Under the pieces are notes generated by a model, which worked only from the letters and a program-made list of their open reading frames with translations, searched no databases and was not told where the DNA came from. Position numbers and translations under genes: made by a program. A stretch of DNA of 64,000 nucleotides from Tagaea sp. (GTDB lineage: Bacteria > Pseudomonadota > Alphaproteobacteria > CACIAM-22H2): positions 128,001 to 192,000 of the forward strand of contig CBDIIB010000005.1 of the NCBI GenBank assembly GCA_965279525.1. The letters are read 5' to 3'. Below, piece after piece: positions 12,503-20,521 of this stretch (its first letter is position 1; each line of letters opens with the position of its first letter).

Positions 12503-12579
12503 TGGCGCGCCCGAAGAGATTCGAACTCCTAACCCTCAGATCCGTAGTCTGATGCTCTATCCAGTTGAGCTACGGGCGC
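12503..12579 (-). tRNA. tRNA-Arg (anticodon ACG), CCA encoded
   Basis: 77-nt cloverleaf: acceptor GCGCCCG/CGGGCGC, D arm GCTC/GAGC, anticodon arm TCAGA-CTACGGA-TCTGA, T loop TTCGAAT. Confidence 0.98.
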
Positions 12580-15502: not shown

Positions 15503-17986
15503 CTAGACCGCCCGCGCGAGCGGCCCGCTGACCAGCGTCTCGAACGCGCGCGCCATCCGGCCGGCATCGATCCGCGACTTGGCGCGCAGGCGCGCAGGCT
15601 CGCCGGCGCGCAAAGCGGCCAGTTCGCCGGGCGACGCGGCCAGCCGAACCGCTTCGGCCACGAACGATCCGTCGCTTTCGTGCGCGAGGCCGGGCCGTCC
15701 CGTCGCCGCCGCGAGCCACCGTCCGATCCGGCCGAGGCTGGTCGGCCCGACCCGGCTCACGACCGGCATGCCCAGGTGCAGGGCTTCGAACAGCGTCGTG
15801 CCGCCTGCGACCGGAAAGGTGCCGAGCACGATGTCGATATTCGAATAGCCGGCGAGATAGCCCGGCCAGCCGAAATGGTAGCGGATGTCGACGCGCGCGG
15901 GATCGATTCCGCAACGCGCGAACTGCGCGCGCACGCGGGCCGTCGCCGTCGGCTCGTCGGCCAGGCCGTTGCCCAGATAGAGACGCGAACCGGGTACGGC
16001 ATGCAGCACCGTGGCCCACAGCGCCACGCAAGCGTCGCTGATCTTGTAGAGGTTCGACAGCGATCCGAAGGTCGGATAGCCGTTCGCCAGCATCGGCGGC
16101 GGGCCGACGGGCGGCAGGCGCATGCCCTGCCCTTCCCAGGTCTCGGGTGCGAACACGTAGAGATCGCCCGGCAACCGCGCCAGACGGCCCGGGAAAGCCG
16201 CGTCGAGTTCCGGCGGATAGAGCGTGTCGGGTCCGATCGCCGCGTCGAAACAGGGATCGAGACTGGGTCCCGACATGTTGAACCAAGTCGCCTGCACCGG
16301 TGCCGGCCGATGGGCCACGCATGCCGGCGAATAGGGGGCGAGCGAGTCGTCGAGATCGACGAGCACGTCGAGTTCGCGCGCGGCGAGCGCTTCGTGCGCC
16401 TTCGTCCACGCCGGCGGCCTGTCCGCCGTCTCCGGCGACAGGACGCCGAGCTCGCGCACCGCGATCCGCGCCGGCAGCGCCTGGCGGATGTTGTCGAGCC
16501 GGTCGCCGAACAGCGACAGCAGCTCGATCTCGAGCGGGCCGTCGGCAAGTGCATGCAGGAACGGGATCATCAGGGCGGTGTAGTTCCGCGAGCCGAAGCA
16601 GCCGCTGACGAAACCCACGCGCGGGCGGGTCCCGCGCGCGGACCGCACCAGCGCTTGTGCCGGCGGGGGCATCAGGGCGCGGATGGTGCGCAGGCCCGCT
16701 TCCTTGGCCAGCGCCACGCTGCGGTCGTCGGCCCCGGTCGCGTACATTTCGAGATTGAGGACCAGACTCGCCACGCGCGGCGGCGGCGGCCCGTCGAAGC
16801 GCACGGCGCGCAGCGTGGCAAGCGCGCCGTCGATGTCGCCCACGCTCGACTGCGCATTCGACACATGCAGGGCGGCCCAGAGCCGCGCGTTGGGATCGCT
16901 TGAGCGCGCCAGCACGTCGCACATCGCGCCCACGCCTTCGGCATCGGCAAGCGAATAGACGACGCGCAGGATCTCGTTGGACAGTTCCGCATCGTCCGGG
17001 CGCGCGGCGACGAGTGCCAGCAGCACGTCGCGGTACGACCGCCGGGAACTTCCCGGGCTGGCGCGCAGGACGCGCAGCAGCCGCGCGCGCACGACCGGGT
17101 CGTCCGGTGCCCGGGCAAGGGCGGCGGCGGCCGGCCCCAATGCCGGCAGGTCGGGCGCGCACCGTGCCAGACAGAAATCCCGCAAGGCCGCGAAGGCGGC
17201 GGCCGGCGCTTCCTGCAGGACGATGTGTCCGGCCTGCGACAGCCGCAGCACGGCGAGGTCGTCGGGCACGCACGCGGCCGCGCGCGTCTCGTCCTCGCGC
17301 GTGAACAGCGCCGTCTGTTCGGTGCCCGTGTCGCCGTCCAGCCGCCCGCCCGTGAGGACGAGCACCCCGCCCGTCGCCGCGACATCGCCAAGGCGCCGCC
17401 ACCAGGCGTCGGGGTCGGCCTCGCGGATGAACCCGTCCCCTTCCATGTACGCCTCGAGGAACGCGTTGGCCCGGTAGCCGGCGATGCCCTTGCGCAGATG
17501 CGCGCGCGCATGCAGCTGTGCGGCGAGGGAAAGCGGCGGATCGACCAGCGCGAATCCGCGCACGCCGGCGAAATCCGGCCGGGCGGCCGCCGCCAGCGCC
17601 ACGATCCCGCCGAACGACTCGCCCAGCAGCAGGACCTCGCGGCCGGCGAGTTCCGCCGCGACGAGATCGGCGACATGGGCCGCGAACACCTCGACGCGCG
17701 CCGACACGGCGGGGCCGCTGCCGTTGAAGCCGGGCATGTCGACGAGCAGCAGGTCGAACGAGTCGGCGAGAAAGCGCGCGACATCGAACAGCGCCGTCGA
17801 CGGACGGAACGTGCCGGCGATGCCGACGATCGCCGGGCGTCCGCGGCCGGCCTTGCCGGTCACGAGAAAGCCGCAGGTCGTCCGTCCGTCGGCCTCGGTG
17901 CGGACCGGACGGATCCATGCCCGGCCGAACGGGACAGGCTGTGCGCGGGCCCGCCGGTCCGGCCTTGGATTCGCGACCTGATGCAA
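15503..17986 (-). CDS. Alpha/beta-hydrolase fused to GT41 (OGT/SPINDLY-type) glycosyltransferase domain
   Basis: 'VDMPGF', GESFG nucleophile elbow, 'AGHIVLQEAP'; C-terminal 'RVGFVS', 'RPAPVQATW', 'FGSLSNLYKIS', 'TFPVAGGTTLFEALHLGMPVV'; start (TTG 17986 after GAAGGGG) uncertain. Confidence 0.8.
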   Translation of the reverse strand: MHQVANPRPDRRARAQPVPFGRAWIRPVRTEADGRTTCGFLVTGKAGRGRPAIVGIAGTFRPSTALFDVARFLADSFDLLLVDMPGFNGSGPAVSARVEVFAAHVADLVAAELAGREVLLLGESFGGIVALAAAARPDFAGVRGFALVDPPLSLAAQLHARAHLRKGIAGYRANAFLEAYMEGDGFIREADPDAWWRRLGDVAATGGVLVLTGGRLDGDTGTEQTALFTREDETRAAACVPDDLAVLRLSQAGHIVLQEAPAAAFAALRDFCLARCAPDLPALGPAAAALARAPDDPVVRARLLRVLRASPGSSRRSYRDVLLALVAARPDDAELSNEILRVVYSLADAEGVGAMCDVLARSSDPNARLWAALHVSNAQSSVGDIDGALATLRAVRFDGPPPPRVASLVLNLEMYATGADDRSVALAKEAGLRTIRALMPPPAQALVRSARGTRPRVGFVSGCFGSRNYTALMIPFLHALADGPLEIELLSLFGDRLDNIRQALPARIAVRELGVLSPETADRPPAWTKAHEALAARELDVLVDLDDSLAPYSPACVAHRPAPVQATWFNMSGPSLDPCFDAAIGPDTLYPPELDAAFPGRLARLPGDLYVFAPETWEGQGMRLPPVGPPPMLANGYPTFGSLSNLYKISDACVALWATVLHAVPGSRLYLGNGLADEPTATARVRAQFARCGIDPARVDIRYHFGWPGYLAGYSNIDIVLGTFPVAGGTTLFEALHLGMPVVSRVGPTSLGRIGRWLAAATGRPGLAHESDGSFVAEAVRLAASPGELAALRAGEPARLRAKSRIDAGRMARAFETLVSGPLARAV

Positions 17987-18111
17987 TCGAGCCCCTTCAT
18001 CCTGCAGCGCTTCCGAAACGGCAACGCCAGACGCGGATGCTAGGGTGGAAAGCAACCTACAATCAGTTCATAAAAATTCTTTACTTAAAAGTTGTATATG
18101 CATGATATTTC

Positions 18112-18145
18112 TTGAAGTTGTATTCACGGAGTTCTATGTTGGTTC
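18112..18145 (+). promoter_or_regulatory. sigma70-like promoter overlapped by alphaproteobacterial LexA box
   Basis: TTGAAG(18112-17)-17 nt-TATGTT(18135-40); GTTC-TATGTTG-GTTC at 18131-18145 equals GTTC-N7-GTTC. Confidence 0.6.
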
Positions 18146-18147
18146 CC

Positions 18148-18330
18148 ATCCGGTCGTGCAAGCGGCCGGTGCGCTGTTTGACAAGTGAAAATGACTGTGT
18201 CGGACCCTTGCAACGGTTGCGCCGGGCGCGGTTGCAGTAACATCCGTTGAACTTCAACGGGATAAATACGCTACCGTTGCAGGTTGTAACGCGTTATGGG
18301 TCGACGCACTACAAAACAGCGCGAAAAAAC
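18148..18330 (+). ncRNA. Candidate structured non-coding RNA (unassigned family)
   Basis: GCAA tetraloop hairpin 18150-18169; nested stems 18171-79/18314-22, 18196-207/18298-308, 18208-17/18273-82, 18244-50/18254-60. Confidence 0.45.
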
Positions 18331-18408
18331 GCGCCGAGGTTACCTTCGTTCCGAATCAAGCGGTTAAACAGGTTACCGTCGCCTGTCGTAACCTGATGAT
18401 TTGCGGGT

Positions 18409-20013
18409 CTAGAACGTCGCCACCTGGCCGTCGCTGCGCGGGTCGGTCGCCCCTTCGAGCAACGCTTGGCCGCCGTCCTTGGCGGGCGTGCGCACGATCA
18501 TGCCGGCGTGGCCCATCAGGTCGGTGAAGTCGGGGGCGACTTCCAGATCGTGGCCCATGCCGCGCAACGCCGCGATGGTGCCGGCGGGGAAGCGGCTTTC
18601 GAGGCGCAGCTTCGTGGTGGCCGTTCCCCAGGTGCGGCCGAGCAGCCAGCGCGGCGCCGTCACCGCTTCCTGCGGCGCCATGCCGTAGAAGGCGTAGCGC
18701 GAGAACACCATGGCTTGCGTCTGCGGCTGGCCGTCGCCGCCCATCGTGCCGTAGACCATGCCGCGCCCGTCGTCGAAGCGCGCCATCGCGGGGTTGAGCG
18801 TGTGGAACGGCTTGCGGCCGGGACTGAGTTCCTGTGCCGCCCCCTTCTCCAGCGAGAACGACGTGCCGCGGTTCTGGAACAGGATGCCGGTGTCGCGCCC
18901 GACCACGCCCGAGCCGAACTCCCAGTAGATCGACTGGATGAAGCTCGCCATGCGGCCTTGCGCATCGATGCAGCCCATCCAGATCGTGTCGCCCTTCTTG
19001 GACGGCTGCGGCCACGGGGCGGCGAGATTCGGGTCGAACTCGGCGGCAAGCCTGGCGATGCGTGGCTCGGCGAGCAGGCTCTGCGCCTCCACATCCATGA
19101 AGGCCGGGTCCTTGACGTGCCGGTCGCGCACGCGGAAGGCAAGCTTGGTCGCCTCGACGAGCGCATGCACGTATTGCGGGCCGTCGCACGTTTCGGGTTT
19201 GAAGCGCGAGAACAGCGCCAGGATCAGCAATGCCGCCAGCCCCTGCGTGGGCGGCGTCATGTTGAAGAGCCGGGCGCCGGGCACGCCGACGGTCAATGGT
19301 GTTACCAGTTTGGCCTTGTGCCGGCGGTAGTCGTCGAGCGTCACCGGGCTGCCGGCGCGCGCAAGATCGGCCGCGATCGCCTCGGCAAGGCCGCCGCGAT
19401 AGAAGCTCTCGGTGCCCTCGCGCCCGATGCGGCGCAGCGTCTCGGCCAACGCCGCCTGCACGAAGCGCGTGCCCGGCTGCGGCACGGTGCCGCCCGGCAG
19501 GAACGCGGCGGCGAAGCCGGGGGCGGCCTCGCACTCCGCGCGTTTCTCGGTCGTGAAGCGCGTCTGGCTTTCGGTCGCGGGGAAGCCGTTCGCGGCGTAG
19601 AAGGCGCCGGGTTCGACGAGGCGCGAAAGCGGCAGCTTGCCGCCCAGCGTGCGCGACATCTCGAACGCCGCCCCCCAGCCCGACACGGTCCCGGCAACAG
19701 TGTTGGCCGCAAGGGGCCCGCGCGACGGGATCGTCTTGTGGCCCTGCTTCTTGTACCAGTCGGGCGAGATCGCGGAAGCCGCCGCCCCGCATGCATCGAT
19801 GCCCACGGGCTTGCCGTCGCCGCCATCGACCAGCCAGAAGCCGTCGCCGCCGATCGCGTTCATGTGCGGATAGACGACCGGGATCGTGGCCGCCATCGCG
19901 ATCATCGCCTCGAGCGCGTTGCCGCCCTCGCGCAGCACGTCGAGCCCGGCCTGCGAGGCCAGATGGTGGGGAGCGGTCGCCATGCCGCGATAGCCGCGCG
20001 GGGTGCTGAGCAT
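18409..20013 (-). CDS. Gamma-glutamyltransferase family protein, HpxW (oxamate amidohydrolase)/YwrD-like
   Basis: No signal peptide; 'VVYPHMNAIGGDGFW', 'GDTIWMGCID...SFIQSIYWEFGSG' (Thr nucleophile), 'KPFHTLNP', 'YGTMGGDGQPQTQ', 'DPRSDG'. Confidence 0.88.
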   Translation of the reverse strand: MLSTPRGYRGMATAPHHLASQAGLDVLREGGNALEAMIAMAATIPVVYPHMNAIGGDGFWLVDGGDGKPVGIDACGAAASAISPDWYKKQGHKTIPSRGPLAANTVAGTVSGWGAAFEMSRTLGGKLPLSRLVEPGAFYAANGFPATESQTRFTTEKRAECEAAPGFAAAFLPGGTVPQPGTRFVQAALAETLRRIGREGTESFYRGGLAEAIAADLARAGSPVTLDDYRRHKAKLVTPLTVGVPGARLFNMTPPTQGLAALLILALFSRFKPETCDGPQYVHALVEATKLAFRVRDRHVKDPAFMDVEAQSLLAEPRIARLAAEFDPNLAAPWPQPSKKGDTIWMGCIDAQGRMASFIQSIYWEFGSGVVGRDTGILFQNRGTSFSLEKGAAQELSPGRKPFHTLNPAMARFDDGRGMVYGTMGGDGQPQTQAMVFSRYAFYGMAPQEAVTAPRWLLGRTWGTATTKLRLESRFPAGTIAALRGMGHDLEVAPDFTDLMGHAGMIVRTPAKDGGQALLEGATDPRSDGQVATF

Positions 20014-20083
20014 GTGCCTGCCTTTGCCTGTGCTTGCTTTTGGAGCGGAGAGGTCTACGCTTTTCCTATCGGAGGGTCCGGCG

Positions 20084-20521
20084 ATGCGCAAAGAGTTTCT
20101 GGCCGCTTTCGTGGCGCTTTTCTGGGCTTTCGCCGCCCAAGCGCAGGGCATCCCGGCCCAGCGGATTCCCGACGCCGACGGCGCCGCGATCCGCTCGACG
20201 ATCGAACGCCAGGTCGACGCCTTCCGCGCCGACGACGGCGAGCGCGCCTTCGCCTTCGCCGACGACAACATCCGCGCGATGTTCGGCGATTCCGCCCGCT
20301 TCATGGCGATGGTGCGCGAGGGCTACGCGATGATCTACCGGCCGCGCGGCTTCGTCTTCGGCGAGGCCGAGGAGCGCGGCGACATCGTGGCGCAGATCGT
20401 CGAGTTCGACGGGCTCGACGGCACGTCGGCCGTCTTCCTCTACGAGATGCGCCGCCAGCCGGACGGCGGCTTCCGCATCGCCGGCGTCTATTTGTTGCGC
20501 GCACGCCGTCCGAGCGTCTAG
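20084..20521 (+). CDS. DUF4864-like secreted protein
   Basis: GGAGG RBS, signal peptide, 'IERQVDAFRADDGERAFAFA...FMAMVREGY.MIYRP...YEMRRQPDG.FRIAGV'. Confidence 0.8.
   Translation: MRKEFLAAFVALFWAFAAQAQGIPAQRIPDADGAAIRSTIERQVDAFRADDGERAFAFADDNIRAMFGDSARFMAMVREGYAMIYRPRGFVFGEAEERGDIVAQIVEFDGLDGTSAVFLYEMRRQPDGGFRIAGVYLLRARRPSV

Follow-up and report, generated by a model that had tools for sequence, protein, structure and literature searches.

A promoter-led unit carrying a boxA antitermination site lies between two genes of Tagaea sp. (GCA_965279525.1), belongs to a family repeated throughout the genome and may be a gene for a noncoding RNA. It was flagged at positions 18112–18330 of a 64,000-nt stretch, hereafter the window (contig CBDIIB010000005.1, positions 128,001–192,000, forward strand). 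The flagged stretch sits inside a 353-bp G+C-poor spacer that separates two minus-strand genes, so the plus-strand unit is divergent from a hydrolase-GT41 gene and convergent on ggt, which encodes gamma-glutamyltranspeptidase. We judge the chances to be about even, arguing from sequence comparison, that the unit is a Nus/boxA-led noncoding RNA gene of ~260 nt and one of a resident family. The evidence comprises its anatomy, its family membership, the identity of its boxA with that of ribosomal RNA (rrn) leaders, promoter conservation, distribution among genomes, positional orthology and moderate covariation. Below, G000 denotes the window's own genome and C3, C4 and C5 its contigs, G001–G020 include its congeners, and L numbers denote fetched loci.

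The flagged locus is one of 16 units in the genome that combine a promoter, a boxA and a structured cargo, and a 17th unit has another cargo. A BLAST search with the spacer against its own genome and relatives gave matches at dozens of places. Iterated nhmmer searches found 24 copies of a ~72-nt module in the genome, among them a tandem pair at the flagged locus (cores 18223–18290 and 18329–18394), and a covariance model (R1, built from 101 copies) recovers the same 24 and places the pair at 18209–18304 and 18311–18406. Allowing up to three mismatches, the boxA 17-mer has 19 genome matches: a module follows 16 of them, the rrn leader accounts for one, one belongs to a further promoter-boxA unit with other cargo that faces a convergent EAL-domain gene, and one is a poor match inside a gene. 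Units share a layout: an AT-rich stretch precedes a TTGACA-like −35 and a −10, after which some units have a hairpin; GYGCTSTTTGACAAGTGAATATG comes next, and a linker of variable length (~10–90 nt) separates it from one or two modules and a tail, which after most copies reads ATTGTTT... or GATGATTTGCGG. Modules measure ~72–96 nt and cargos 85–205 nt.

The modules fall into two types. Type I reads GGTTGC-ACGAAG...GTTGCAGTAAC...AACTTCAAAGGGATAAATA..., and type II has CTACAAAA, then a small hairpin whose loop is A-rich, then GGTTAC and ...ATCAAnGGnTTAAACAGG.... At the flagged locus type I precedes type II; the order is reversed at C4:818674–818835. The first cargo domain (18194–18309, plus strand) is a type I module that forms a rod-like hairpin closed by the stem 18195–18207/18298–18308. 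The second (18310–18394, plus strand) is a type II module with CTACAAAA, GCGCG-AAAAAA-CGCGC at 18319–18334, a GGTTAC-loop hairpin and AGGTTAC...GTAACCT at 18370–18394. A preliminary description of this locus had set the 3′ limit at 18330 and the RNA length at about 180 nt, which is too short: given the second module copy at 18311–18406, the conserved unit reaches 18408, where it abuts the stop codon of ggt. That description had also missed the 16-unit family, the central fact here. It named a DNA repeat or element remnant as the outcome that would refute it, and the multi-copy family partly brings that outcome about; promoter conservation and positional orthology indicate more than a dead repeat.

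The leader of the unit has the form of an antitermination leader. An 8-bp boxB-like hairpin with a GCAA tetraloop (18150–18169, plus strand; arms CCGGTCGT/GCGGCCGG, six Watson-Crick and two G-U pairs) stands directly upstream of boxA, and the 5′ 49 nt fold at −17.4 kcal/mol (z −1.95). The hairpin is retained in orthologues with altered sequence, 2/8 pairs being changed on both sides and 74% of cells paired. boxA occupies 18171–18193 on the plus strand in its extended form (GCGCTGTTTGACAAGTGAAAATG), with the core 17-mer at 18173–18189; positions 18171–18189 read GCGCTGTTTGACAAGTGAA. The degenerate 17-mer matches the window once, against 0.00 matches expected from 100 shuffles, and boxA is invariant across orthologues save for one A/G column. 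The flagged boxA (GCTGTTTGACAAGTGAA) agrees at 15/17 positions with the boxA of the genome's own rrn leader (GCTCTTTGAAAAGTGAA), which by our own count sits 226 nt upstream of the 16S start, and at 17/17 with the rrn-leader boxA of the congener G005. A single 16S gene was found in the five-contig assembly (start C5:1864411, from one primer site and an Rfam match), in which rRNA operons may be collapsed. The flagged boxA is also close to the consensus GYTCTTTAANA, which is gammaproteobacterial, differing from it at positions 4 and 8; the survey that gives this consensus left noncoding RNAs out (Baniulyte et al. 2017, PMC5725501). Judged on such comparisons, boxA is genuine at the sequence level, and the earlier claim of a hairpin-plus-boxA leader on a promoter-led noncoding unit holds.

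A pairing between boxA and the cargo was considered and set aside: RNAalifold paired CUGUUUGA with UUAAACAG of the type II module in 6/6 orthologues, with no covariation. We also note that CUGUUUGA or CUCUUUGA of boxA is complementary to the conserved module stretches UUAAACAG and UCAAAGGG (18173–18180 and 18364–18372 in the window; module consensus TCAAAGGG). This complementarity may be a low-complexity coincidence or an anti-boxA.

Promoter elements are conserved along with boxA. At the flagged locus a sigma-70-type promoter (18112–18140, plus strand) has the −35 TTGAAG (18112–18117), a 17-nt spacer and the −10 TATGTT (18135–18140), which would place the transcription start near 18147. A simple sigma-70 scan with a threshold of 9 of 12 did not call it; a manual count gives 8 of 12. 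In an alignment of six positional orthologues downstream of ggt, the window included, similarity runs from the −35 to the tail, and flanks upstream of the −35 cannot be aligned. Within this alignment TTGAAG is kept in 6/6 and the −10 retains a TA...T-like form in 6/6, the spacer between them being the least conserved part of the promoter. We further scored 60 family units (62 distinct boxA matches minus the rrn leader and the in-gene match) against TTGACA-16/18-TATAAT out of 12, with shuffled upstream regions as controls. Scores of at least 8/12 occur in 48/60 units versus 14% of shuffles and scores of at least 9/12 in 33/60 versus 2%; the promoter-like hexamers at a fixed distance upstream in 48/60 units are sequence evidence that boxA would lie in a transcribed leader shortly after a promoter. 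The distance from the end of the −10 to boxA clusters at 16–20 nt or at 30–31 nt. The flagged locus belongs to the longer class, whose gap leaves room for the hairpin, and many units lack a hairpin, their boxA lying ~10 nt from the inferred start.

Promoter subfamilies differ in further respects. In one, the palindrome TTCCTATGATAGGA covers a −10 of TAGGAT (G000 C4:24998, C4:174776, C5:1711015 and C4:1187648, and also L061, L065, L070, L071, L073 and L078); it is a candidate operator for an unknown repressor, to judge from its symmetry and position. The boxB-like hairpin is present in this subfamily too, and the main promoter subfamily has no room for it. Another subfamily carries GGAACGGGTTCC between −35 and −10. 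The TTGACA inside boxA was tried as a second promoter and rejected, as no −10 lies 16–18 nt downstream in the copies read.

Only a subclade of one genus has the family, and its copies there hold conserved positions. Fourteen of 20 genus genomes hold the boxA 17-mer, most of them with 11–19 copies and fragmented assemblies with fewer; it has no match in the other six, and beyond the genus a single match in 1/40 genomes. A reversed boxA pattern, used as control, has none in 61 genomes. The module model finds 11–34 copies per genome, roughly 350 altogether, in exactly the same 14 genomes, none in the other six genus genomes and none in 20 genomes of other genera, and a pattern scan of 185,579 species genomes met the module only in Tagaea sp. 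records or in unclassified metagenome-assembled genomes, labeled Rhodospirillales, Azospirillum or Telmatospirillum. Among fetched loci, 18/24 module copies have a positional orthologue, which indicates a family that is resident and not recently mobile; the ggt-linked unit itself was found in seven other genomes. At ggt 3′ ends without the unit, G005 (which has the family elsewhere) bears an ordinary bidirectional terminator, G009 and G020 an abutting convergent gene, and G001 and G018 an AT-rich spacer.

Several observations concern elements related to the family. The 17th unit (G000 C5:1675633, plus strand; L128:234–386) has a TTGACT-17-TATAAT promoter, a boxA and ~135 nt of different cargo, which is rich in GTCGC/GTCAAC/GTTGAC words and reaches the stop of the convergent EAL-domain gene. 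One module copy without an upstream boxA lies ~1.1 kb past the right end of the window (C5:193110–193171, minus strand); its upstream flank looks coding, and L027, L072 and L077 contain positional orthologues of it. In G005, the boxA-led units L113, L121, L124 and L126 carry word arrays in place of the module, with ~5–8 (A)TGTCGCG-like words (ATGTCGCG) spaced ~11 nt apart up to a terminal AAATTTTGCGG; no cluster of three or more TGTCGCG words occurs in the window's own genome. TGTCGCG is a motif once proposed for SciP in Caulobacter, a specificity that is doubted in PMC4083442. A separate G-rich repeat, GGGAGAGGG(T/C)TAGGGTGAGGG, often follows a short palindrome ctcccgc..gcgggag (G000 C5:1053625, C5:1471389 and C4:24998, all outside the window; L059, L064, L074 and L039). 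It adjoins the upstream end of several units and lies, inverted, downstream of one.

The cargo is structured, and module copies show signs of covariation. Positions 18146–18340 fold at −77.5 kcal/mol on the plus strand (z −2.4) and −67.0 kcal/mol on the minus strand (z −1.6), and the minimum-free-energy fold contains the nested helices that had been proposed from the letters. Domain 18194–18309 alone reaches −50.9 kcal/mol (z −4.25, equaled by 0/200 shuffles), and 9/16 cargos in the genome have z below −2, a rough figure from mononucleotide shuffles. Imposed on the six orthologues, the proposed fold has 79% of cells paired. Its closing stem of type I (18195–18207/18298–18308) has 6/10 pairs changed on both sides, with 66% of cells paired. 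The outer helix fares differently: 18171–18179 (GCGCTGTTT) is a perfect reverse complement of 18314–18322 (AAACAGCGC), and yet this 9-bp pairing, which would bury boxA, shows no compensatory pair in the six orthologues, its 3′ partner varying opposite an invariant boxA, nor does RNAalifold recover it from them. The inner helices are plausible and the outer one is unsupported.

Across 101 module copies, four helices have 76% of cells paired, versus 29–45% when the partner is slid by 1–3 columns, and 0/500 shuffles reach the observed paired share, double-change cells or covariation score. Covarying examples include ATCCC/GGGAT versus AAGCC/GGCTT, and the central palindrome covaries between species (GGTTAC-C-GTAACC; GGCGAC-G-GTCGC in G005; GGTTGC-G-GCAACC). 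G-U cells exceed A-C cells in three of the four helices (33:18, 76:34 and 40:27).

The 3′ end of the unit offers transcription a stop on each strand, of unlike strength. The U-rich tail GATGATTTGCGGGT (18395–18408, plus strand), a presumed weak termination region, abuts the ggt stop codon; the plus-strand terminator candidate there, AGGTTAC...GTAACCT followed by GATGATTTG, is weak and was not called in a scan of 17800–18600. That scan called a single terminator-like site, on the minus strand (18336..18317 plus TTTTG), and shuffles average 1.1 sites. It falls within a hairpin, CGGCGCG-TTTTTT-CGCGCTG then TTTTGTAG (18310–18336, minus strand), and on that strand the first part of the type II module has the sequence of a G+C-rich stem-loop with UUUUGUAG behind it. 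The ggt mRNA likely terminates at this hairpin. The ggt 3′ untranslated region and a plus-strand RNA ending in the weak AGGUUAC...GUAACCU hairpin and GAUGAUUUG tail would then be complementary over ~95 nt.

Units often end against a convergent gene. In the genome, as scored by a crude gene caller using third-position G+C, 17/22 loci face a convergent gene and 5/22 a same-direction gene, and the module ends within 25 nt of the convergent stop in 11/22; at the flagged locus the nhmmer core ends 15 nt from that stop, with the tail abutting TAG. Elsewhere (n = 73 units) 39 face a convergent gene among 67 scorable, 28 face a same-direction frame, many of these probably artifacts of stop-to-stop frames, and 6 face none; a convergent stop lies within 40 nt in 22/73. 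Neighboring genes share no common function, the convergent ones including FliG, SoxZ, TctA, malate synthase, a MiaB-like enzyme and a CHASE2 cyclase. One explanation of this geometry, which we hold improbable, is that the units are programmed antisense or read-through promoters, from which polymerase, made resistant to Rho by boxA, would run on past the weak tail and into the convergent neighbor (here ggt), which would be repressed by transcriptional interference or a long antisense RNA. The prevalence of convergent neighbors (17/22 here, 39/67 elsewhere) and the weak plus-strand terminator are as it predicts, and boxA counters Rho, the normal suppressor of antisense transcription (PMC5725501; PMC5540618). 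It accounts poorly for the units that face a same-direction gene (5/22 and 28/73) and for targets without a common theme, and the strong conservation of the 3′ module and tail suggests that the RNA has a defined end.

If the unit is instead a boxA-led RNA gene, its plus strand would be transcribed from ~18147 to ~18405 into an RNA of ~260 nt without coding potential. The 5′ boxA and boxB-like hairpin would recruit NusB/NusE and further Nus factors, as at rrn leaders, and Nus loading would let RNA polymerase complete an untranslated, structured RNA by escaping Rho-dependent termination, possibly also aiding folding of the cargo. Transcription would stop in the type II module, whose minus strand would supply the hairpin and U-tract that terminate the convergent ggt mRNA, leaving the two transcripts with complementary 3′ ends of ~95 nt. 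This reading predicts transcription with the RNA ends given, binding of Nus factors, resistance to Rho and antisense overlap.

A number of points weigh against it. So short an RNA has no obvious need for antitermination, and its plus-strand terminator is weak (a 7-bp stem rich in A/U, a loop of 11 nt and a U-tract with interruptions), the scan having called only the minus-strand site. The Escherichia coli boxA mutant C4T/T6C loses function (PMC5725501), and position 4 is G here versus C in the E. coli consensus; this is less damaging because the G005 rrn leader carries G too. For the proposed fold on six orthologues the paired share was reached by 33/500 shuffles, which is marginal, and the RNAalifold covariation term is unfavorable (+2.01). 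In the larger set of copies the shuffle controls for covariation are not phylogeny-aware, 36% of helix P2 cells are unpaired and pairing registers vary among copies, so that structural support, and with it family-level covariation, is only moderate. Helix P1 has 36 G-U versus 39 A-C cells. Of 102 module cores, 55 fold better on the plus strand and 47 on the minus (mean difference −1.2 kcal/mol, p about 0.05, from non-independent copies), and the 16 cargos divide 8 to 8; folding energy was accordingly rejected as a means of assigning the strand, and the evidence for the plus strand is thin. Palindromes with a 1-nt center and a word spacing of 10–11 nt would fit a DNA-binding protein equally well. 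Six sequencing runs contain the stretch or part of it, none on record as RNA, and four of the six yielded contigs only (probably DNA), which say nothing about strand, ends or level.

The main rival takes up several of these points and seems to us possible, though distinctly the less favored. It holds that the units are a DNA-level mosaic intergenic repeat of the BIME/REP, RIME or Correia kind, in which promoter and boxA are hitch-hiking fossils without a functional RNA. Its pieces (a promoter-like one, a boxA derived from the rrn leader and palindromic modules) would have been scattered and shuffled by recombination or through an unknown mobilizing enzyme, and they would survive at gene ends chiefly for service as insulators, protein-binding sites or terminators acting in both directions. 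Dispersal in many copies, mosaic order (I-II here, II-I at the C4 locus), variable cargo length, palindromes with GTNNC-type words 10–11 nt apart and the absence of a clear strand bias in folding energy all suit such a repeat. So do the proximity of modules to convergent stops, the lack of a common function among adjacent genes, the ordinary terminator that replaces the unit at ggt in G005 and the G-rich repeat adjoining several units.

Other evidence speaks against a mosaic repeat. Promoter hexamers and boxA spacing are conserved in 60 units far above shuffles, and the promoter is kept in the six positional orthologues with flanks diverged beyond alignment. Orthologous positions in other species for 18/24 copies, and a boxA at rrn-leader identity in 11–19 copies per genome, tell in the same direction. 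REP/RAYT identity was considered and rejected, as the Y1 (RAYT) transposase PF01797 has no match in this 97%-complete genome and does match control genomes. In the units we identified neither terminal inverted repeats nor target duplications. As for features of miniature inverted-repeat transposable elements, internal palindromes are present, and far-side synteny differs at ggt 3′ ends lacking the unit, so that no boundary or duplication can be read there.

Control by the SOS system is a further explanation, and the least probable we consider: the preliminary description had proposed an SOS-induced small RNA repressed by LexA through GTTC-N7-GTTC, or else control of the divergent hydrolase-GT41 gene by this box. 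The pattern is indeed perfect (GTTCTATGTTGGTTC, 18131–18145, plus strand) and overlaps the −10. The motif type is valid in this organism, since lexA (G000 C3:576055–576804, minus strand) has a perfect GAAC-taaaata-GAAC over its promoter, and the spacer TATGTTG resembles TATTTTA of the lexA site at 5/7 positions. recA (G000 C4:673645–674607, minus strand) has GAAC-aaaactg-GTAC, that is GAAC-N7-GTAC, upstream, and a search for the SOS regulon of this genome could start from the lexA and recA boxes. The pattern itself is not above chance: the window has one match versus 2.23 expected, with at least one in 86/100 shuffles, and the genome has 73 versus ~66 expected from base composition (own arithmetic). 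Only its placement over a −10 is notable. Neither is it conserved, as 0/5 aligned positional orthologues keep both half-sites (L002 retains the first only), the second half-site is one substitution from an ATTCC conserved in orthologues, and the pattern, on either strand, occurs in 1/60 family units, namely the flagged one. The stretch between −35 and −10, the expected seat of an operator, is moreover the least conserved portion of the promoter. The box at 18131–18145 is thus most likely a lineage-specific coincidence and not a regulatory feature of the family, and SOS/LexA control is unlikely. As a caution, even a LexA box that matches the textbook perfectly and lies over a −10 can arise by coincidence, which comparison with orthologues and paralogues exposes.

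The remaining statements of the preliminary description were mostly accurate. A reading of 17700–18700 found all its listed motifs where it had placed them, and the next gene is convergent with no long open reading frame downstream of the promoter. The frame at 18409..20304 (minus strand, stop TAG 18411–18409) is ggt, whose 631-aa product matches Pfam PF01019 (E 6.9e-125). The divergent gene (15503..18055, minus strand) encodes an alpha/beta-hydrolase plus GT41-like protein (Pfam PF13844, PF00561 and PF12146), 850 aa in its longest frame, with an uncertain true start. Within the unit no conserved open reading frame was found: a small peptide of 19 codons from ATG 18191 was rejected, its ATG being kept in 0/5 aligned orthologues. 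The suggested Infernal search against Rfam (Rfam 15) identified no family at the locus, either at gathering threshold over the whole window or at E up to 10 over 17900–18500, and none at gathering threshold at 20 paralogous loci. Its sole match in the window is a tRNA gene (12506–12579, minus strand). A SAM-alpha riboswitch was matched at L103:3862–3937 (minus strand; G000 C5 near 1396114–1396189), scoring 36.5 against a gathering score of 36 bits.

A more far-reaching possibility, which we put forward tentatively, is that each genome of the genus subclade runs 11–19 "mini-rrn" units, in which a strong promoter and a boxA identical to that of rrn, often accompanied by a boxB-like hairpin, yield a Nus-modified, Rho-resistant noncoding RNA, and that these form a new class of antitermination-dependent small RNAs. 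Their cargo would be repeated GTNNC-type words and palindromes, replaced in some G005 units by 5–8 ATGTCGCG words. If so, the RNAs could titrate NusB/S10 and tie their level to ribosome synthesis, could be sponges for an unknown nucleic-acid-binding protein, or could pair through the shared module with the 3′ untranslated regions of about a dozen convergent genes that hold the module antisense. The unit may be a NusB/E decoy, as the preliminary description suggested. In the usual view, antitermination through boxA and Nus factors belongs to rRNA operons, to lambdoid phages and to a few single genes or CRISPR leaders. The present family, if it is what we propose, would widen the scope of Nus factors to noncoding RNAs dispersed through the genome at positions conserved across species and would offer a natural system for the role of boxA on short untranslated transcripts, in Rho protection, folding or factor titration.

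Searches of the literature, supplementary files excluded, on boxA with noncoding RNA or Rho, on Tagaea, on boxA with CRISPR arrays and on alphaproteobacterial intergenic repeats met with no such family. The perfect match over a −10 and its likeness to the box at lexA recall the alphaproteobacterial LexA box (GTTC-N7-GTTC / GAAC-N7-GAAC), from which the flagged one differs in being unconserved in orthologues and paralogues and not above chance. Mosaic repeats (BIME/REP, RIME, ERIC and Correia) likewise combine short modules, rich in palindromes and dispersed at gene ends, in varying arrangements, and some, such as Correia elements, carry promoters; the units differ in lacking a RAYT gene, in being positionally conserved between species and in carrying an rrn-type boxA. 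They also lack the conserved 5′ GTAG beside the hairpin of REP, showing CTAC on the strand where the motif precedes the hairpin. Multi-copy alphaproteobacterial small RNA families in Rfam (AbcR/ar15 and ar35 "cuckoo") are similarly paralogous, with their own promoter and a conserved stem-loop domain, but no Rfam model matches the flagged locus or its 20 paralogous loci, and we know of no AbcR/ar15- or ar35-type family that starts with boxA.

Other parallels are boxA elements themselves. Those outside rRNA operons (in the suhB 5′ untranslated region, at rpsJ and others, and reportedly in the leaders of CRISPR arrays, as described by Stringer et al. in eLife in 2020) share with the units a boxA on a specific transcript; they are single and lie upstream of a gene or array, whereas the units are dispersed in more than ten copies per genome with their own promoter and a noncoding cargo. 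From the rrn leader antitermination site (boxB-boxA-boxC, with NusB/NusE/NusA/NusG/SuhB) the units differ in that no rRNA follows, the cargo spans 85–205 nt, no boxC was identified, many have no hairpin and 16–17 of them stand against one 16S gene found. The segment just after boxA pairs in the flagged copy with a trailer after domain 1, to which the rRNA leader-trailer helix is a parallel (PMC10250234). In the order of promoter, hairpin and boxA, and in a 17-mer only 2/17 off its own rrn leader and identical to that of the congener G005, the flagged unit resembles an rrn leader, though it belongs to no rRNA operon.

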